DNA of 42,559 nucleotides, from IMG/VR virus record IMGVR_UViG_3300025528_000003. One strand, given 5' to 3'. The position numbers were made by a program, and so were the translations under genes. The notes beneath the pieces are model-generated. The model was given only the letters and a program-made list of their open reading frames with translations, searched no databases and had not been told where the DNA came from. This DNA is from a virus. This document shows, in pieces, positions 3,934 through 41,279 of this stretch. The number at the start of each line of letters is the position of its first letter. Within the stretch, counting starts at the first letter, position 1.

Positions 3934-4391
3934 AATGGGATCTCCGAGTCGTCCAGATCGACGCGGCTTCCTTCGCCATCCCCGTAGCTGCTCTGCTGCT
4001 CGCCGTATCCGCTCTGTGACGGGCCACGGTCGGACTGCGATTTGTTGTCGAGCATCTGGAGTTCGCCGCGATACTTCTGGAGCACTATTTCCGTGGTGTA
4101 CCGATCATGCCCGGACTGGTCCTGCCATTTGCGGGTTTGCAGGGAGCCTTCCAGATAGACCTTCATGCCTTTACGAAGGTATTGCTCTGCGAGCTTCGCC
4201 AAATTGTCATTGAAGATGACTACCTGATGCCATTCTGTCTTTTCGCGGCGCTCGCCCGTGTTCTTGTCGCGCCAGCTTTCCGATGTGGCGATGCGAAGGT
4301 TTACAACCGGATCGCCGCTCTGAAGCCTGCGAACTTCCGGATCGGCTCCAAGGTTGCCTACGAGGATGACGCGATTAACAGAACCTGCCAT
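3930..4391 (-). CDS. ssb: Single-stranded DNA-binding protein
   Basis: N-terminal OB-fold signature ([15 protein letters not shown]...), a Gly/Gln/Ser-rich linker and an acidic DDSEIPF tail. Confidence 0.95.
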
Positions 4392-6685: not shown

Positions 6686-6970
6686 TCACTGTTCGGAGGG
6701 GGTGGGGAGGGAGGCTTCGGCCTTGGCGATAGCGCGACGGATCTGCTCGCGTGTTTCGCCTAAAGATGACCCGAATCCAGCGCGCATTTCGGCTTCGATC
6801 TGCTTCAGAGCGGAGAGCATGTCAGAGGCAATCTCGGCGCGCACAAATAGAGCCGCCTCAAGACGAGCGAGTTCACGGGCGGCACGGCGCATCAGAGCAT
6901 GATCTTGGCTAACACTGCGATGAGCGCCGTTGATGGCTTCGTGCAGGTCGGTGACGATGTCAGTCGTCAT
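6686..6970 (-). CDS. Hypothetical helical protein (94 aa)
   Basis: ORF with start/stop coupling. Confidence 0.55.
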   Translation of the reverse strand: MTTDIVTDLHEAINGAHRSVSQDHALMRRAARELARLEAALFVRAEIASDMLSALKQIEAEMRAGFGSSLGETREQIRRAIAKAEASLPTPSEQ

Positions 6971-7179
6971 TGCGCGATCTCCCTATGTCCAAAGAGGAAT
7001 TCGTCTTCGCGGAACTCATCACCGGATACGCAATTTCCGCAGACGCACTCGCCGGGGACGGTTCTCTCCATTGACGCGATGGCGTAGAATTCCGCGCGGC
7101 CATTTCCGCACACTTCACATGCGCCCCAGCTTCGATGAACAAGGCGGGTGTACCGGATGAAGGCCGGACGCTGGCTCAT
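6967..7179 (-). CDS. Hypothetical zinc-ribbon protein (70 aa)
   Basis: Two CxxC pairs (CEVCGNG...CVCGNC). Confidence 0.6.
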   Translation of the reverse strand: MSQRPAFIRYTRLVHRSWGACEVCGNGRAEFYAIASMERTVPGECVCGNCVSGDEFREDEFLFGHREIAQ

Positions 7180-7331
7180 TCCAGCATCCCCTGAAGCTTC
7201 GCCTTCTGAGCCTCATAGGCTGCGATGAGGTCGCGGTCCTGATGCTTCTCCATGTAGGAGCGGGCACGGCTGAGAACGCGGTCGCATTCTGCGATTGCTT
7301 CGATCACGCGGCGCTTCTGTTCGTAGGTCAT
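7176..7331 (-). CDS. First gene of the leftward early operon, hypothetical (51 aa)
   Basis: ATG 7331 has GGAGAG upstream. The longer form to 7496 would read through an A9 run and the operator region. Confidence 0.5.
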   Translation of the reverse strand: MTYEQKRRVIEAIAECDRVLSRARSYMEKHQDRDLIAAYEAQKAKLQGMLE

Positions 7332-7424
7332 CTCGCTCTCCTCTCTCGGCATCTGGCAGAGCCGTCTCTGCCGTTTCGATGGGCAGATCTGGCTGGTGCC
7401 GTCTTCGTGCCCGTTGACCCTTCT

Positions 7425-7453
7425 CTTTTCGCACGCAATTGCGTTAATGTCAA
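7425..7453 (-). promoter_or_regulatory. Candidate leftward early promoter module (PL-like): TTGACA -35 plus operator; -10 unclear
   Basis: Minus strand reads TTGACATTAACGCAATTGCGTG, 21/22 identical to the rightward promoter module at 8458-8479. The -10 position reads only GAAAAG/CGAAAA. Confidence 0.45.
7433..7444. promoter_or_regulatory. 12-bp perfect palindrome ACGCAATTGCGT (operator, left copy)
   Basis: Read directly. An identical palindrome is at 8467-8478. Confidence 0.7.
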
Positions 7454-7484
7454 CACGTGTGAACGAGATAGCGTGCATTTTTTT

Positions 7485-7513
7485 TTGACTTTGCACGAAT
7501 CAGCGTTTATGCT
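7485..7513 (+). promoter_or_regulatory. Sigma70-like promoter TTGACT-N17-TATGCT pointing rightwards into an ORF-free segment
   Basis: Read directly. It diverges from the PL-like module. Confidence 0.45.
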
Positions 7514-7519
7514 TGGGGA

Positions 7520-7838
7520 ACATTAGAAGCGGCGACCCGGTGCAACTCCGTGGCCAGCTAAGCCGCAGGCGCGGGTGTCGAAAGTCCTACCGTGCTGCTG
7601 GAAAGTGAGGACGGATTAGCCGAGAGGCGTCCTGCCAGATGCGACCGACCGACCGACGGTTCAGGCCGACTGATGGCAAAGATGCTCCCGCCTTTCAGGC
7701 TTAGGTCTGAGGGGTAGGGGGTGTCTTTGCCTTCGCTTCCCTCCCTCTCTCTGGTTCAGAACCCTCTTTCACTGAGAGATTAGAGCACAACTTTAAGGCC
7801 TATGTACTAGGCGGACCAAAAATCGCCGGTCTCTGAAT
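7520..7838 (+). ncRNA. Candidate structured non-coding RNA of unknown class (strand provisional)
   Basis: No ORF of 60 aa or more on either strand, with stops in all frames. GC-rich with nested complementary segments: 7532-39/7572-80, 7550-54/7562-66, 7608-13/7628-33, 7709-21/7737-49. A promoter lies immediately upstream. Confidence 0.3.
7642..7657. repeat. Tetranucleotide repeat (CGAC)x4
   Basis: Read directly, inside the ORF-free segment. Confidence 0.9.
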
Positions 7839-7853
7839 GTTCTCATTTTGTTC
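7839..7853. promoter_or_regulatory. GTTC-N7-GTTC, exact match to the alphaproteobacterial LexA (SOS) box
   Basis: GTTCtcattttGTTC read directly, in an AT-rich intergenic stretch. It abuts TTGCCA (7854-59) -N17/18- CTTAAT/TTAATT. Confidence 0.5.
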
Positions 7854-7883
7854 TTGCCAATGAATAGGAATTCAGTCTTAATT
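7854..7883 (+). promoter_or_regulatory. Candidate rightward promoter next to the SOS box
   Basis: TTGCCA, a 17-18 nt spacer, then (C)TTAAT(T). Confidence 0.3.
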
Positions 7884-7917
7884 GGGTACTCATGGCGAGC
7901 CAGTAAGGGAGGCAGTT

Positions 7918-7977
7918 TTGAGTACCATGTACGCTGTGCAGGGCTTCATTAAGGAAAATCTCCCTGTCGTCTCGTGA
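7918..7977 (+). CDS. Possible 19-codon leader ORF
   Basis: AAGGGAGG (7905-12) lies 5 nt before TTG 7918 (alternative ATG at 7927). Its TGA overlaps GTG 7974 of the next ORF. Confidence 0.2.
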   Translation: MSTMYAVQGFIKENLPVVS

Positions 7978-7987
7978 GGGACGGGGA
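7951..7987 (-). terminator. Intrinsic terminator for the repressor transcript
   Basis: 8-bp stem (7961-68 / 7980-87, one G-U pair), followed on the minus strand by GAUUUUCC. Confidence 0.55.
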
Positions 7988-8201
7988 CAGTCTCATGCGG
8001 CGGGCACGAATGAGGGAACTCGAAGAGATATTACGAATCTGGGCTTCGTTATCGGACGAACATCGGGAGGTCGGACTTCAATACGCTAAATACCTCGCAG
8101 CTCTTGAAAGAGCCGGAGTAACTGCTGGCGCCCCTCTTCAGACAGACCAGCATACACACGAAGAAGTTCCTCGTCAGTTGGCGTCACTTCTAGTCCGGTA
8201 A
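7974..8201 (+). CDS. Small ORF (75 aa from GTG 7974; 68 aa from ATG 7995) resembling the repressor C-terminal tail; candidate antirepressor
   Basis: EEILRIWASLSDEHREVGLQYAKYL aligns without gaps to the repressor's EELLRVYAGLSEEGRQQLLRLFQEL (11/25 identical). It converges on the repressor gene and overlaps its 3' end by 116 nt. Confidence 0.4.
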   Translation: MRDGDSLMRRARMRELEEILRIWASLSDEHREVGLQYAKYLAALERAGVTAGAPLQTDQHTHEEVPRQLASLLVR

Positions 8202-8457
8202 GGATCTTTATCGGGCTGACGCCTAGTTCCTTGGTGAGCGCCAGGAAGTTGCCGACGCTCGGCTCGCGACCGGACTTCATAAGCTGATTGACAAAATTAG
8301 GGCCTAGACCAGCGGCGATGCTGATCTGTCGCGCTGATCTCCCCTTGTTGATCTCCGCTTCAATCGCAGCGAAGAGCCGCTTCCGCCAACTCTCATCGTT
8401 CATGGCGGCTAGAGTTAGCATATTTTGCGTTTTGTGCTTGAACGTTATTGCGGGCAC
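8086..8457 (-). CDS. CI-like immunity repressor: XRE-family HTH only, no S24 autopeptidase domain
   Basis: HTH segment RSARQISIAAGLGPNFVNQLMKSGREPSVGNFLALTKELGV. It diverges from the cro-like gene. Alternative starts at 8421 and 8403 are at least as likely as 8457. Confidence 0.85.
   Translation of the reverse strand: MPAITFKHKTQNMLTLAAMNDESWRKRLFAAIEAEINKGRSARQISIAAGLGPNFVNQLMKSGREPSVGNFLALTKELGVSPIKILTGLEVTPTDEELLRVYAGLSEEGRQQLLRLFQELRGI
8442..8453. promoter_or_regulatory. Degenerate second operator ACGTTATTGCGG (9/12 match)
   Basis: Read directly. Its centre is 25 bp from the centre of the perfect palindrome at 8467-78. Confidence 0.35.
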
Positions 8458-8485
8458 TTGACTTTAACGCAATTGCGTGTATCCT
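8458..8485 (+). promoter_or_regulatory. Rightward early promoter (PR-like) TTGACT-N16-TATCCT with the ACGCAATTGCGT operator (8467-8478) in the spacer
   Basis: Read directly. The -10 ends 8 nt before ATG 8494, implying a leaderless or near-leaderless cro-like mRNA. Confidence 0.6.
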
Positions 8486-8493
8486 GCGTAATC

Positions 8494-8730
8494 ATGAAGT
8501 CGCAACTCCTTACCGATATCGAGAAGTTCCTGGCCGAAACCGGCATGAGCGAGTACCGCTTTGGGTATCTCGCGGCCCGTAATGGGCGTCTGGTCGAAAG
8601 GCTTCGCCAGGGCACAACCCCGAAGCGCGGAAAGCTCGTAACGATCCACCCGGATACCGAAAAGAAGATTCGCGGTTTCATGGCCGAACGGCGCTTGCTG
8701 AAGCGGAAACGCAGAGGGGTCGCGGCATGA
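8494..8730 (+). CDS. Cro-like early regulator (78 aa)
   Basis: First gene of the rightward operon, divergent from the repressor. HTH-like segment SEYRFGYLAARNGRLVERLRQG. Confidence 0.6.
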   Translation: MKSQLLTDIEKFLAETGMSEYRFGYLAARNGRLVERLRQGTTPKRGKLVTIHPDTEKKIRGFMAERRLLKRKRRGVAA

Positions 8731-8785
8731 CCAAGATCAACGATGGTGGGCCTGACGCGCTCCCGGTCGAGCTGAGATTGAAGCC

Positions 8786-9010
8786 ATGAAGTCTGACACG
8801 AACAATTGGCAACCCATAGAAACAGCCCCGATGGACGGGACACTTGTCCTCATCGCGTTTGACTACCACCCGACAGCGGTCGGTCGGTTTGAATACGGTT
8901 CTTGGATCTATTGGCCCTGCATGACCGAGGGCGGCGACAGCCCCACTCACTGGCAACCTCTTCCAGAGCCTCCCGTCGAACGCTCCAAATCCCGGGAGCA
9001 GGGCACATGA
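8786..9010 (+). CDS. DUF551-like protein
   Basis: Hallmark WQPIETAPMDGTLVLI. Confidence 0.75.
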   Translation: MKSDTNNWQPIETAPMDGTLVLIAFDYHPTAVGRFEYGSWIYWPCMTEGGDSPTHWQPLPEPPVERSKSREQGT

Positions 9011-9297
9011 CCGCCTCCATTATCCCTTTCACCAATCACCGCGTCTCCTCCTCCCGCGCGGTGACTCCAGCCGGGGAGGGGTTCTCCTCCTCCAGCCCTT
9101 CCCCGGCACCCCTTTCACCACTGGAGTGTGACGCGCCTACGGGTAGCAGCACGATCTTCGCACCGTCCTTTGTCCAGGGTGGGCTAGCCCGCAGGACGGA
9201 AGGCAGGTCTCCGACTGACCGACTGAACCGTGACATAGACGGGCTGGCATCGTTTTCACCGTGGACTGTCTCCCGAGATCATTGGTGGCGCGCATGA
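9007..9297 (+). CDS. Hypothetical Ser/Pro-rich protein (96 aa)
   Basis: ATGA overlaps at both ends. Confidence 0.5.
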   Translation: MTASIIPFTNHRVSSSRAVTPAGEGFSSSSPSPAPLSPLECDAPTGSSTIFAPSFVQGGLARRTEGRSPTDRLNRDIDGLASFSPWTVSRDHWWRA

Positions 9298-9857
9298 AGA
9301 ACCCTCGCCGCAGAACAGGGAGCCGTTCTCTTGTATCGCGAGATAGGCTGAATGAGCTCGTACAGGTAGACGTTGAATCCGGGAAAATCCGATGGAAGCC
9401 TAGGGAGGTGACGCATTGGACGATCCATGGATGGAATAAGCACTACGCTGGCAAAGAAGCCGGATTCTATAACTCGGACGGCTATCTCATTATCCACATC
9501 GATAAGAAGGCTCATCTCGTCCATAGAGTGATTTGGTTCTATGCCCACGGATACTGGCCCATAGAAATTGACCACATCAATGGGGCCCGCGACGATAACC
9601 GCATAAGTAACTTGCGAGAAGTTTCCCGTAAGGAAAACAGACGGAATGCCGGTCGCAATAGGAACAACCGAAGCGGAGTTACGGGCGTCTGTTGGGATAC
9701 TAATCGAGGACGCTGGCTTGCATACATCACCGTGGATCGGAAGCAAAAACACCTCGGACACTTCTTGACGATAGAAGATGCGGCGCGAGCAAGGAAACTC
9801 GCTCAGAAGAAATACGGATTCCATGCCAATCATGGTCGGGAGGCCCCCCTCCAATGA
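9294..9857 (+). CDS. HNH endonuclease with AP2-like DNA-binding domain
   Basis: Motifs HRVIWFYAHGYWPIEIDHINGARDDNRISNLREVSRKEN, then GVCWDTNRGRWLAYITVDRKQKHLGHF. Confidence 0.85.
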   Translation: MKNPRRRTGSRSLVSRDRLNELVQVDVESGKIRWKPREVTHWTIHGWNKHYAGKEAGFYNSDGYLIIHIDKKAHLVHRVIWFYAHGYWPIEIDHINGARDDNRISNLREVSRKENRRNAGRNRNNRSGVTGVCWDTNRGRWLAYITVDRKQKHLGHFLTIEDAARARKLAQKKYGFHANHGREAPLQ

Positions 9858-11546: not shown

Positions 11547-12289
11547 CGCCTCGCACTCTCATTTGGTGGTCTACCGGAGCTGCGAGCTTTGTTGCCGCGC
11601 AATTGGCGCTCCGCGAGAACCCGGAGGCGATAATCGTCCGGTGTGAGACCAACAACGAAGACCCGGATAACTACCGCTTCGAAGCAGATGCGATGCGCCG
11701 CCTCAATGCAAGCGTGACGCTGCTGAAGTCTGGTGAGTACGAAAGCGTTTGGGACGTATGGCAAAAGCGCCGCTACATGTCCGGCATCAACGGCGCGCCC
11801 TGCACTAGCGAAATGAAGGTAGCGCCACGTCTTGCGTTTCAAAGGCCCGGCGACGTTCACGTTTTCGGCTACACGGCAGATAGGGAGGACGTGGAGCGTT
11901 TCGAGCGCCTTAAGTCCACCTACTTTGAACTGATTGTGCGCGCCCCGCTGATCGAACATGGCATTACGAAGGCTGCCAGTCTCGCAATGGTCGAACGCGC
12001 CGGACTCAAGCTGCCGCGCTCCTACGCGATGGGTTTCCCTAATGCTAATTGCCTGCAAACAGGCTGCGTGAAGGCGACAAGCCCCGATTATTGGGCGCTG
12101 TATCGTAAGCACTTCCCGGAGAACTTTGCTCGTACCGCAGCGTATGCGCGGGAAATTGGTGCGCGATTGACCCGCATAAATGGTGAGCGCCGTTTCATAG
12201 ACGAGATCCCCGAGGATTGGCCTGTGCGCAAGCCGATAGTCCCGGCGTGCGACTTCCTTTGCGCTATAGCTGAAATGGAGTCCGTATGA
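11543..12289 (+). CDS. PAPS-reductase/PP-loop-like protein with a degenerate P-loop
   Basis: N-terminal IWWSTGAASFVAA occupies the place of the SGGxDS PP-loop. ATGA overlap with the VRR-NUC gene. Confidence 0.45.
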   Translation: MTPRTLIWWSTGAASFVAAQLALRENPEAIIVRCETNNEDPDNYRFEADAMRRLNASVTLLKSGEYESVWDVWQKRRYMSGINGAPCTSEMKVAPRLAFQRPGDVHVFGYTADREDVERFERLKSTYFELIVRAPLIEHGITKAASLAMVERAGLKLPRSYAMGFPNANCLQTGCVKATSPDYWALYRKHFPENFARTAAYAREIGARLTRINGERRFIDEIPEDWPVRKPIVPACDFLCAIAEMESV

Positions 12290-12603
12290 GCTTCATCCTT
12301 TCCATGGTCGGTTTGGCGGCTGTCTCTATGGTTCAGAACGCTGCCTTCACAGCAGTCTCCCGCTCTCGCAACAGTGGTGATGTCCGGCACCACACGAAAT
12401 GGGCCGTGGCCTCAAACTGCGTGTGGTTTGTTGCCCAGCTTTTCATTTGGTCGAGCATCTGGCGCGCCGTTGAAACGGGCCAGTGGTGGCAGATCGCTGT
12501 TGCAGGCGTTGTCTACGTAGCCTCTACCACACTCGGATCCGTCTGGATGATGGCTCGGATGCTTAGAACTGAGACCGGGAAACAACGGGTTGGAGCGAGA
12601 TGA
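12286..12603 (+). CDS. Integral membrane protein (about 3 TM segments)
   Basis: Hydrophobic segments ILSMVGLAAVSMV, NCVWFVAQLFIWSSIW and IAVAGVVYVASTTLGSVWMM. Confidence 0.65.
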   Translation: MSFILSMVGLAAVSMVQNAAFTAVSRSRNSGDVRHHTKWAVASNCVWFVAQLFIWSSIWRAVETGQWWQIAVAGVVYVASTTLGSVWMMARMLRTETGKQRVGAR

Positions 12604-40089: not shown

Positions 40090-40120
40090 GTGGCTCAAAC
40101 CCGCAGAAAACCGGGATTCG

Positions 40121-40173
40121 GCACCGGCCTTCTAAGCCGATGGTCGCAGGTTCGAATCCTGCCGGGGTCGCCA
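40121..40173 (+). other. attP core: 3' ~50 nt of a tRNA-Arg(UCU)-like gene (anticodon arm to CCA); not a complete tRNA
   Basis: Own folding. T-arm GCAGG-TTCGAAT-CCTGC, acceptor 3' strand CGGGGTC-G-CCA, anticodon loop CTTCTAA. There is no matching 5' acceptor strand or D-arm upstream. Confidence 0.8.
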
Positions 40174-40216
40174 CAAAATCAATCACTTAGCAGCACTCCC
40201 AGACACCCGTGTTGCA

Positions 40217-40236
40217 CCGTTTACAAACGGTTTACA
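40217..40236 (+). repeat. Direct repeats CCGTTTACA / CGGTTTACA (candidate integrase arm-type sites) on the right arm of attP
   Basis: Read directly, between the attP core and the int stop codon. Confidence 0.6.
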
Positions 40237-40244
40237 ATTCCCGT

Positions 40245-41279
40245 TCATGGATGGTTCCTTTCCATCCGCAGAATCACGGCGTCACTGTCCTCCTGATCGG
40301 GGGACAGATAATGCCTTTCCAGGATCGTCGTGACCTCGCCAATTGAGTGCCCTGAGATGAGGGCAATGCGCTTGATGTCATTGCCTTCCTTCCACCGCTC
40401 GGTGATGAAAGTCCCCCTGAGATCGTGGAAGGTAACATCGGTAATACCGAGCTTATCGCACTCTTTGCCCCATGATGTCTTGAATCCGTCCTTCGTCCAT
40501 GGACGACCCCGCGAATTGAGGCAGATGCGCAATGTGTCCTTTGGCATTGCATCAAGCATCGCCTTCAGTCGCGAATGGACGCGCACCTTCAGCTTCTTGC
40601 CGGTCTTGGACTGGTGGAAGCGAAGATAGGTGCCGTCATAATCCCTCCACGAAAGGCCCAGAATGTCACTCTGCCGCTGGCCGGTCGCTATGGCGATCTC
40701 GAATGGCAGAAGAAGGTGACTGGGCGCATTCTCCCTGAATCTCCTGATCAGGTCCGGCGTCCATATGAAGTCGCGCCGAGACCCCTTGTAGAGCCGGGTA
40801 ATCCCGTGACAGGGGTTCTTGTCGATCAGTTCGCAGGCTATGCCGTAGGAAAAGAGCTTGGACAGCGAGAAAAGCAGCTTGTCGGCCTTGCGCGGGTTCT
40901 GGGCAAAGCTTCTGTGCCACTTCCTTATATCGTCCTTCATCCCCTTCTCTTGCGTGAGGTGAAGGGGAAGGCGGGGCCATTTCTTCCTGATGAGCCGGAA
41001 GGCGTAGAGATGGTCCCTGCGCGTCGTTTCCGCCAGAGCGAGCCAGTCGGGGTTGGGTTCGTGGTCCGTCCCGGTGAAGCGATCTATCAGGCTATCAAGC
41101 GTCAGTGTCGGCTCTCTTGCCGCAAGCTCCCGGAGACGGGCCACCTCCATGACAAATTCCGGCGTGTGCGGCTTTGCCTTGATCTTCGGGCCGCCGCGCC
41201 ATGCGTAATAGTGATGGCGATAGGTGCCGTCCGCCAGCTTGCGCTTGACGTGATGCACGCCCTTAACGCGCACGAGCAT
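40245..41279 (-). CDS. int: Tyrosine recombinase / phage integrase
   Basis: 344 aa. C-terminal catalytic contexts ATGQRQSDIL, HDLRGTF and GHS...ERHY. Adjacent to the tRNA-fragment attP. Confidence 0.95.
   Translation of the reverse strand: MLVRVKGVHHVKRKLADGTYRHHYYAWRGGPKIKAKPHTPEFVMEVARLRELAAREPTLTLDSLIDRFTGTDHEPNPDWLALAETTRRDHLYAFRLIRKKWPRLPLHLTQEKGMKDDIRKWHRSFAQNPRKADKLLFSLSKLFSYGIACELIDKNPCHGITRLYKGSRRDFIWTPDLIRRFRENAPSHLLLPFEIAIATGQRQSDILGLSWRDYDGTYLRFHQSKTGKKLKVRVHSRLKAMLDAMPKDTLRICLNSRGRPWTKDGFKTSWGKECDKLGITDVTFHDLRGTFITERWKEGNDIKRIALISGHSIGEVTTILERHYLSPDQEDSDAVILRMERNHP

Follow-up and report, generated by a model that had tools for sequence, protein, structure and literature searches.

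Genomic locus and promoter of the RNA element

The IMG/VR virus record IMGVR_UViG_3300025528_000003 comprises 42,559 nucleotides (nt), and this whole stretch is referred to here as the window. Positions 7527-7973 contain no open reading frame (ORF) of ≥60 amino acids (aa) on either strand and hold just ORFs of 30-41 aa; an earlier reading made from the letters alone (the sequence-only reading) had described such an ORF-free stretch at 7520-7838. The plus strand of this segment almost certainly encodes a member of a genuine family of structured RNAs (7520-7765), conserved from 7528 to about 7762, for which 72 homologues were aligned. The sequence-only reading had also taken the segment, which separates the repressor gene from the leftward early operon, for a structured one served by a promoter of its own; the 72 covarying homologues and a -35-like motif at a fixed distance from the RNA bear this out.

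The promoter-like site on the plus strand (7485-7513) is sigma-70-like, with TTGACT at 7485-90, a 17-nt spacer and TATGCT at 7508-13. It had been picked out by eye and was confirmed in a site scan of 6900-8800, which returned 2 promoter-like sites vs 0.7 expected from shuffles; transcription of the RNA would start at about 7520. Across the family, a TTG[AC]N motif, often with an A/T tract before it, peaks 40-44 nt 5' of the first helix (P1) in 39/71 homologues and is present at -56..-34 in 50/71 homologues vs a background of 20%; the TTGACT of the window stands at -44 relative to P1. Only 7/70 members carry a strict E. coli-type promoter, which is expected for alphaproteobacterial promoters.

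The fold of the plus strand of 7520-7840 beats that of its shuffles (z -2.24; 0/100 shuffles equal it), and that of the minus strand is no better than shuffles (z +0.43). The plus strand was taken as the RNA strand because G-U to G-C exchanges are frequent and many G-U pairs exist only in the plus reading; an RNA from the minus strand, or a 3' untranslated region of the repressor gene, was ruled out by these G-U pairs together with the fold z-scores. Since the ORFs that overlap the element fall in differing frames among members, the element is noncoding, and a protein gene or pseudogene was ruled out by stops in every frame in the window and by the inconsistent frames of the relatives. Reading of the member sequences likewise showed that small AUG or UUG ORFs within the 3' hairpin H (described below) are not kept in frame.

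Two further motifs lie near the promoter. The motif GATAGCGTGCAT (7469-7484), just 5' of the -35 hexamer of the RNA, is common to the window and Synechococcus phage Yong-M2-251, where it is found in two copies (3935-3975 of that locus), and the shared module therefore extends into DNA upstream of the promoter, where this motif might serve to bind a regulator. The palindrome ACGCAATTGCGT is found twice (7433-7444 and 8467-8478). Both copies directly follow a TTGAC(A/T) hexamer, leftward at 7453-7448 and rightward in a promoter-like site at 8458-8485, and they look like operators of early promoters that diverge. Neither palindrome extends into the RNA promoter.

Distribution of the family and comparison with known RNAs

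Homologues of the element were collected from isolated phages, prophages, viral contigs and metagenomes. A blastn search of isolated phages matched window positions 7528-7761, at 74% identity, to a stretch without annotation in Synechococcus phages Yong-M2-251 and Ssp-JY39. A pattern scan of IMG/VR returned 42 viral contigs, of which 41 are homologous and one (L128) is a chance match, and a pattern scan of metagenomes returned 54 loci with the RNA. A scan of genome contigs with a loose pattern gave 2/120 real loci, both from Aquamicrobium (A. segne and A. defluvii), in which the RNA lies in prophage-like regions. After duplicate removal, the family set contained 72 distinct sequences from isolated phages, Aquamicrobium prophages, IMG/VR and metagenomes.

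Covariance-model searches with Rfam 15, proposed in the sequence-only reading, matched no family on the element, whether over the whole window at gathering score or over 7300-8100 at E ≤ 10, where chance microRNA-like matches fell on hairpin H only; sixteen other members gave no match on the element at E ≤ 10. The view that the segment lies outside known RNA families thus held up. ARAGORN called no tRNA or tmRNA in the window (two-piece forms included). The self-cleaving ribozyme families (HDV-like, hammerhead, twister, pistol, hatchet and glmS) had no Rfam match, and neither did RNase P RNA at gathering score or E ≤ 10. The hallmarks of RNase P RNA are a P4 pseudoknot and conserved regions of the type GGAAAGUCCGG / ACAGAAxCCGGCUUA; the GAAAGUCC string of the window RNA is located in a hairpin loop and pairs with AGGAC, and the likeness to RNase P that the sequence-only reading had called superficial is just that. 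Literature searches by conserved sequence words and by topic returned no description of this RNA. The family is previously uncatalogued and is widespread in temperate phages and prophages.

Comparison of the window phage with Yong-M2-251 revealed no proteins in common beyond weak matches of XRE-like and Cro-like type; because both phages carry the RNA, a phage-encoded partner that the two would share is ruled out. The closest isolate by portal protein (62% identity) is Rhizobium phage RHph_Y1_10, which holds an 810-nt unannotated gap without this RNA in the same slot. The RNA copies of Yong-M2-251 and Ssp-JY39 (three loci) are ~90% identical to those of Aquamicrobium (Rhizobiales), and both Synechococcus phages encode proteins annotated as gene-transfer-agent-like. 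Either the module has crossed phyla, or the true host of these phages is an alphaproteobacterium in the culture.

A 5' domain with two pseudoknots

Covariation was tested on the alignment of 72 sequences, as the sequence-only reading had suggested, by using 500 shuffles and, as a control, partner columns slid by 1-3 positions. Over the whole structure, 90.8% of cells are paired vs 80.5% in shuffles, cells changed on both sides number 357 vs 121, and 0/500 shuffles reached the observed values; the slid-partner controls are 42-52% paired. Compensatory covariation is thus heavy, and within the 5' domain the helices are 89-100% paired with triple-type covariation.

P1 pairs GCGGC (7529-33) with GCCGC (7562-66), spans 7529-7566 and is 98% paired, with 4/5 pairs changed on both sides (for example, GC44/UA12/CG11). 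It encloses the P2 hairpin (7537-7551; stem 7538-40 with 7548-50), which is 100% paired, with an outer pair of GC45/CG23. The 7-nt loop of P2 (UGCAACU, 7541-47; family form UGCAAYU) is T-loop-like, and the GGUGCAA-UCC around P2 is invariant in the family. A first pseudoknot (c/c'; CCAGC at 7554-58 with GCUGG at 7597-7601) crosses P1 and is 95% paired (UA32/AU25/CG7 and GC53/AU13). Hairpin d (7568-7596; stem 7568-72 with 7592-96) is 99% paired with many G-U to G-C changes, and its 15-nt loop reads G-[UGU]-C-GAAA-GUCCU-A (family form G-X-C-GAAA-GUCCU-A). The second pseudoknot (PK2) pairs GUCCUACC (7584-91) with G.GAGGAC (7605-12) and is 99-100% paired; one of its pairs is UA27/CG22/GC20, another is CG57/GC13, and one relative (L139) carries the compensatory combination GUCCC/GGGAC. 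Hairpin e (7613-7632; stem 7613-16 with 7629-32) follows, 89% paired with 4/4 pairs changed on both sides, and contains a conserved CCGAGAGG in its loop. Invariant nt concentrate at unpaired sites, namely the T-loop, GAC, GAAAGUCC, GAAA and the G-run of the 3' half. A compact domain of ~105 nt with two pseudoknots and a T-loop-like hairpin is strongly supported as the predicted fold of the 5' part.

This fold replaces most of the pairing drawn earlier from the window by eye. The proposed helix of 7532-39 with 7572-80 is not the conserved pairing, as 7573-79 sits in a hairpin loop across the 72 homologues, and the same holds for the GUGGC/GCCGC hairpin at 7550-66, whose GCCGC (7562-66) partners GCGGC (7529-33) throughout. 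The AGGACG/CGTCCT pairing survives in part: 7613-16 with 7629-32 is a covarying stem, and AGGAC at 7608-12 is better supported as the pseudoknot partner of GUCCU (7584-88).

Two competing partners for the central strand of the 3' half

The 3' half is dominated by hairpin H (7675-7731). Its 5' strand consists of the elements h and A'c (7675-89) and CCUUUCAG; its 3' strand consists of the G-run GAGGGGUAGGGGG (7709-21), element A' (7719-25) and element h' (7726-31), so that GGCAAAG-AUGCUCCC-G-CCUU... pairs with ...GGGG-UA-GGGGG-UGUC-UUUGCC. The sequence-only reading had paired the G-run (7709-21) with a C-run at 7737-49; that helix is possible in the window, but among the homologues the partner of the G-run is the 5' strand of hairpin H, and one family variant (type 3) lacks the C-run tail altogether.

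Both parts of the 3' strand of H have an earlier copy in the RNA. Element A' (GGG-X-C) is repeated letter for letter as element A (GGGUGUC, 7573-79) in the loop of hairpin d, and A is accordingly complementary to A'c as well. The A/A' 5-mer is identical within 70/71 distinct sequences across 9 variants (GAAGC, GGGUC, GGAGC, GUGUC, GUAUC, GAAUC, GAGUC, GAACC and AGGUC), and the complement A'c was found in 64/71 sequences. In a plain MAFFT alignment, A:A'c is 84.5% paired with 3/5 pairs changed on both sides and equals A':A'c in quality. Similarly, element f (UGCCA, 7633-37) is a direct copy of h' and can pair with UGGCA at 7674-78, and f, h and h' show three-way covariation (UGCC/GGCA/UGCC, UUGC/GCAA/UUGC and UGGC/GCCA/UGGC). 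In full-length minimum-energy folds (RNAfold), h pairs with h' in 62/70 sequences, and when the transcripts are cut just before A', the same nt of h pair with f in 42 of those 62.

By its sequence, the central strand h+A'c (7675-89) is thus predicted to have two mutually exclusive partners. In State I, its partners would be f and the copy A that hairpin d carries in its loop, with an interruption of 55 nt, so that the 3' half docks on the 5' domain; in State II, it would pair with the contiguous A'h', the later-transcribed copies of A and f, to form the long hairpin H. We consider it probable, though by no means assured, that this two-state strand exchange is functional.

Mid domain and 3' tail as co-varying direct repeats

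A second set of repeats involves a 'mid' domain (7638-7673), which f and 7674-78 can close, and the 3' tail (7732-7762). In the window, mid consists of (CGAC)4 at 7642-57 followed by element B (GGUUCAG, 7658-64), and in the tail the pyrimidine run CCCUCCCUCUCUCU (7739-52) leads into element B' (GGUUCAG, 7753-59); conservation in the family stops a few nt past B'. The sequence-only reading had noted the (CGAC)4, which is present at 7642-7657, as a microsatellite. Because (CGAC)n recurs in many type-1 relatives of the window variant (for example, L130, L140, L141 and L162), it was taken as a conserved element and not as a product of slippage.

In each of the three family types, the mid loop (~25 nt) recurs imperfectly in the tail, in direct orientation. 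In type 1, that of the window, mid reads CGACCGACCGACCGAC-GGUUCAG and the tail CCCUCCCUCUCUCU-GGUUCAG; in type 2, mid reads UCCCAUCCC..GCCUUCAG and the tail CCCUCCCUC..GCCUUCAG; in type 3, mid reads GCUCUGCCGAGGCUCGUCUCAAGGUUCAG and the tail GAUACCGGGCUGAACUCAGGUUCAG. B and B' change together, with cores that include GGUUCAG, GCCUUCAG, UCGUCAG, GGGUCAGAC, UCGACA and GUUCUUG, and further GUUCCAUGAG, AGUGUGA, AGUGCAA, AAGUGCAGA, AGGCUCAG and UCGAUUA. The longest common substring of B and B' is 7.09 within sequences vs 5.18 across sequences (permutation p 2e-4). Alignment of the whole mid with the whole tail gave p 5e-4 in types 2 and 3 and fell short of significance in type 1, in which mid and tail have no more than B in common. 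The spacing from B to B' is 81-95 nt and follows no fixed frame.

A common partner of B and B' was sought in the RNA and its flanks (-150..+420), without a consistent complement, and the surrounding sequence of 45 loci (up to ~10 kb) held no recurrent target site of the tail. The apical 3' strand of H was considered as a partner of B and rejected, as it fits the window and one relative (L167) but not the family as a whole, and within- and cross-sequence duplex energies are equal. Bridge or seek RNAs, omega RNAs or reRNAs, and template RNAs of retrons or of the DRT type were considered on account of the direct repeats and were likewise rejected; IS110, TnpB, IscB and reverse transcriptase were not seen among the neighbouring ORFs examined, most of which were not run against Pfam.

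Two other places in the window resemble the repeats. At 12323-12339, TCTCTATGGTTCAGAAC is a 16/17 copy of the end of the RNA tail (7746-62) on the same strand (blastn-short, E 0.03), within an ORF of 105 aa (12286-12603) that is membrane-protein-like by appearance. At 9185-9265, CAGGACGGAAGGCAGGTCTCCGACTGACCGACTGAACCGT combines the word AGGACGGA, a (CCGAC)n-like run and an exact reverse complement of ACGGUUCAG, the element B region of the window; this combination may be due to chance in G+C-rich DNA.

Genomic context of the RNA loci

Context was surveyed in 47 loci with usable flanks. On the 5' side of the RNA lies, in most cases, a divergent leftward early (recombination) operon, with a RecT/Bet gene according to the annotation of both Synechococcus phages; by their sequence, these operons appear also to hold genes for PD-(D/E)XK or YqaJ-like exonucleases. 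In Yong-M2-251 and Ssp-JY39, the RNA occupies the same slot, with the leftward RecT/Bet operon on one side and rightward or convergent genes on the other. On the 3' side, 0-3 variable genes follow, and in 19 loci a CI/LexA-like repressor gene stands after this cargo on the opposite strand, so that the RNA gene converges on the repressor gene. The first downstream ORF lies on the plus strand in 23 and on the minus strand in 17 of 40 loci.

The cargo includes a DUF5131 gene with a TcmP-like-looking partner gene (4 loci), HNH-like proteins, a D12 adenine methyltransferase, a second methyltransferase-like protein and a GcrA-like protein. Clustering of the neighbours brought out repressor and recombination genes alone, and no fixed partner protein was found; the RNA is constant and the adjacent protein cargo variable or missing, with neither a defence protein nor the genes of one pathway consistently linked to the RNA loci. 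A role as rex-like defence cargo expressed in lysogens, which the sequence-only reading had in mind for this slot, gains no support from these neighbours. Downstream of one type-3 RNA (L138, of which L197 is a duplicate), a 462-aa TROVE+VWA (Ro60/Rsr-like) protein is encoded on the plus strand, 634-2022 nt after the RNA start and ~400 nt past the RNA; another locus (L143) encodes a downstream protein that is VWA-like by its DxSxS motif and has no Pfam match. The Ro60-like gene belongs to one distinct sequence (four duplicate loci), and the other type-3 loci run straight to the repressor-like gene.

No intrinsic terminator was found in 6900-8800 of the window, and across the family one follows the element in 4/69 loci vs a background of 9%. 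Between the RNA and the repressor gene, an ORF of ~19 aa (MSTMYAVQGFIKENLPVVS) lies at 7918-7977 (+) after a strong GGGAGG ribosome-binding site, and a hairpin followed by a T-run on the minus strand (7950-7985) could, as read from the sequence, terminate the repressor transcript. A 68-aa ORF at 7996-8201 (+) overlaps the 3' end of the convergent XRE-like repressor gene (8086-8403, minus strand). It contains EE(I/L)LR(I/V)(W/Y)A.LS.E.R, as does the repressor C-terminus (9/16 identical; E 8e-5 for a single comparison), and its product could be a small repressor mimic made from the transcript of the RNA; the equivalent place in RHph_Y1_10 holds an unrelated plus-strand ORF of 69 aa. Further downstream, a 198-aa ORF (9261-9857, plus strand) is by appearance a homing endonuclease of the HNH/AP2 type, and RHph_Y1_10 carries many HNH genes.

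At the far end of the window, 40097-41279 is an attP-like region that consists of a partial tRNA, a hairpin and a tyrosine integrase gene (40245-41279, minus strand; PHROG integrase, E 9e-33). The partial tRNA (40097-40170) is weak (31.9 bits), is the sole match of the window in Rfam at gathering score and was not called by ARAGORN; it has a good UCU anticodon arm, T arm and acceptor 3' end, and a poor 5' half. Just 3' of it, 40189-40219 (+) reads AGCAGCAC..GACACCCG.GTTGCACCG, which is complementary and collinear to the RNA segments CGGUGCAAC (7537-45), CGGGUGUC (7572-79) and GUGCUGCU (7592-99), with a roughly estimated chance probability of ~0.02. The idea that this copy near int/attP makes the RNA an integration guide was rejected, as Yong-M2-251 has no such match.

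A co-transcriptional switch as the favoured explanation

The explanation we favour, tentatively and at somewhat less than even odds, is a cis-acting, co-transcriptional conformational switch of riboswitch-like type that gates rightward transcription into the cargo and antisense transcription into the repressor gene. It fits best because it accommodates a promoter-proximal pseudoknotted domain, two exclusive co-varying partners, the absence of a terminator and the variable or opposite-strand downstream genes. In this model, the promoter of the RNA would drive transcription rightward, away from the leftward operon behind it and in the direction of the repressor gene's 3' end; the 5' domain would be the sensor and the 3' ~135 nt the strand-exchange module. 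State I would form first, and A'h' would later displace it unless the docked form is stabilised, for which a ligand, an ion, a protein, a tRNA, temperature or polymerase speed are candidates. The state of the RNA would set the fate of the transcript past the tail, in both transcription and RNA survival; in the window, this downstream part would comprise the small ORF (7918-77), the 68-aa ORF (7996-8201) and the antisense of the repressor 3' end (8086-8201). As there is no intrinsic terminator, the output would probably be exerted via access of Rho or an RNase to the pyrimidine-rich tail, and access to such single strands would be the most economical output in this model. The folding order, the output and the existence of a trigger are what we infer here.

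Several observations weigh against the switch. It does not account for the direct-repeat covariation of B and B', for which searches of the RNA and its surroundings gave no complement. In ~40% of loci, the next gene lies on the opposite strand, and therefore a downstream gene to regulate is not always present. The 5' domain matches no known aptamer. By prediction, State II is much the more stable of the two, and State I could therefore be just a folding intermediate; the transcript ends and both states are themselves predicted, and the pyrimidine-rich, rut-like tail is missing in the type-3 variant.

The covariation of B and B' would suit a trans-acting regulatory RNA, either a small RNA (sRNA) or an antisense immunity RNA in the style of P1 c4 and P4 CI, in which mid and tail would be redundant single-stranded seeds (C-rich run and B) for a phage- or host-specific target and the remainder a scaffold. 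B lies in a hairpin loop and B' in the unpaired 3' tail, and the two co-vary over >15 core sequences; the succession of elements (A, B, complementary strand, A', B') is reminiscent of the a1 b1 / c4 / a2 b2 arrangement of phage P1; and the site in the immunity region, the own promoter and the lack of a fixed downstream gene would all suit such an RNA. We nevertheless regard this as unlikely, since a complementary target was found neither within ~10 kb in the 45 loci nor in the whole window, Rfam gave no C4 match, no antirepressor gene is consistently downstream, and an sRNA scaffold needs no invariant double-pseudoknot domain of 105 nt.

Rather less likely still, in our judgement, is that the RNA serves as scaffold, decoy or mimic and that mid and tail are two binding sites for a conserved host factor, for example RNA polymerase, Rho, an RNase, the tRNA-handling machinery or Ro60/Rsr. 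Extreme sequence conservation across phages with unrelated proteomes, the T-loop-like hairpin and the invariant loops would be expected of such an RNA, two motif copies would suit a multimeric binder, and the TROVE+VWA gene ~400 nt downstream on the same strand at the type-3 locus L138 points the same way. That gene stands beside one distinct sequence only, however, no Y RNA or YrlA match was obtained in Rfam, no terminal stem of the Y-RNA type is present, and B is highly variable between phages, which is odd for the site of a conserved host protein.

A self-processing ribozyme, in which the 5' double-pseudoknot domain would cut at or near B' and so set the 3' end, with B as pseudo-substrate or second site, is improbable. 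Its appeal is purely topological: a nested pseudoknot core with invariant unpaired nt, conservation that ends a few nt past B' with no terminator to set the 3' end, and a candidate site in duplicate (B and B'). Against this, no Rfam ribozyme family was matched, the last base of B varies (G, A or U), and a pairing between the core and B was not found.

Readings without any RNA gene, that is, a DNA-level element (operators, an origin or a recombination site), a decayed protein gene or an unstructured 5' leader, are already largely refuted and barely credible, for although palindromes that resemble operators (7433-44 and 8467-78) adjoin the element, DNA sites typically feature direct repeats and a plus-strand ORF follows in 23/40 loci, the compensatory changes preserve Watson-Crick and G-U pairs on the plus strand only, the stops in all frames here and the inconsistent ORF frames in relatives speak against a decayed gene, and the same element stands before unrelated genes or none.

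Relation to known systems

In logic, the RNA is closest to the c4/CI immunity RNAs and to riboswitch expression platforms, and it is a member of neither. Like P1/P7 c4 and P4 CI (Rfam C4, RF01695), it is a phage noncoding RNA of the immunity region with its own promoter, in which a complementary element is flanked by two direct-repeat target copies on one transcript (here A/A'c/A' and f/h/h'), and these repeats differ between phages and co-vary. The likeness is one of logic, not of membership: sequence and covariance-model similarity are absent, the RNA is ~240 nt vs ~77 nt for c4, which lacks a double-pseudoknot domain, the downstream genes vary or lie on the opposite strand in place of an icd/ant-type operon, and here the complementary strand and one partner make a stable hairpin in the same molecule.

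With strand-exchange riboswitches (e.g., the Rho-dependent Mg2+ or FMN leaders of proteobacteria), the RNA shares a conserved pseudoknotted 5' domain followed by exclusive helices, direct-repeat covariation of the competing strands, a promoter-proximal position and the absence of an intrinsic terminator. Unlike them, it has no known aptamer match and no consistent downstream gene or pathway, its 'platform' is as conserved as its 'aptamer', and its mid/tail repeat pair has no counterpart. T-loops of the form GGUGNAAAUCC are found in cobalamin and FMN riboswitches, RNase P and T-box RNAs, and the GG-UGCAAYU-CC hairpin resembles them in its U-N-N-R-A pattern; only this sub-motif is in common, and none of these RNAs was detected at E ≤ 10.

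HK022 put RNAs and lambda nut/rut sites are likewise cis RNA elements right after temperate-phage early promoters that control the reach of RNA polymerase, and the C-rich segments beside a hairpin are reminiscent of lambda rutA-boxB-rutB. This RNA is much larger, has another fold and lies outside the PL and PR operons, on a transcript of its own that runs against the repressor gene, and antitermination has no support here. Finally, the YrlA Y RNAs that act with Ro60/Rsr are also structured and carry a T-loop-like hairpin. Ro60 genes usually adjoin their Y RNAs, and a TROVE+VWA gene follows in one relative; the 5' and 3' ends of this RNA do not pair with each other, it has no Ro-binding terminal stem and no Rfam match, and the link to Ro60 exists in that one distinct sequence only.

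Implications

Whatever its role, the element defines a new and well-delimited RNA class with >70 members. RNAs with a complex fold that are conserved across unrelated phages are, to our knowledge, rare, and this one lies at the centre of the lysis/lysogeny switch region and is more conserved than any neighbouring protein, being 74% identical between the window and Yong-M2-251 despite essentially no common proteins. Its double-pseudoknot core resembles the cores of aptamers and ribozymes, and the combination of three-way and direct-repeat covariation is unusual and points to a built-in conformational switch. A more specific proposal, which we hold to be speculative and unlikely as it stands, is a phage sensor RNA in which the double-pseudoknot domain would read a host signal (a metabolite, an ion, a tRNA or the transcription machinery) and strand exchange would decide on antisense transcription into the repressor gene. 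If true, this would be an RNA-only input to the lysogeny decision that is common to many unrelated temperate phages, and the self-mimicking mid/tail repeats would represent a new design principle. If the RNA senses or steers transcription toward the repressor gene, it would add a new RNA-based layer of lysis/lysogeny control in temperate phages of the Alphaproteobacteria type.

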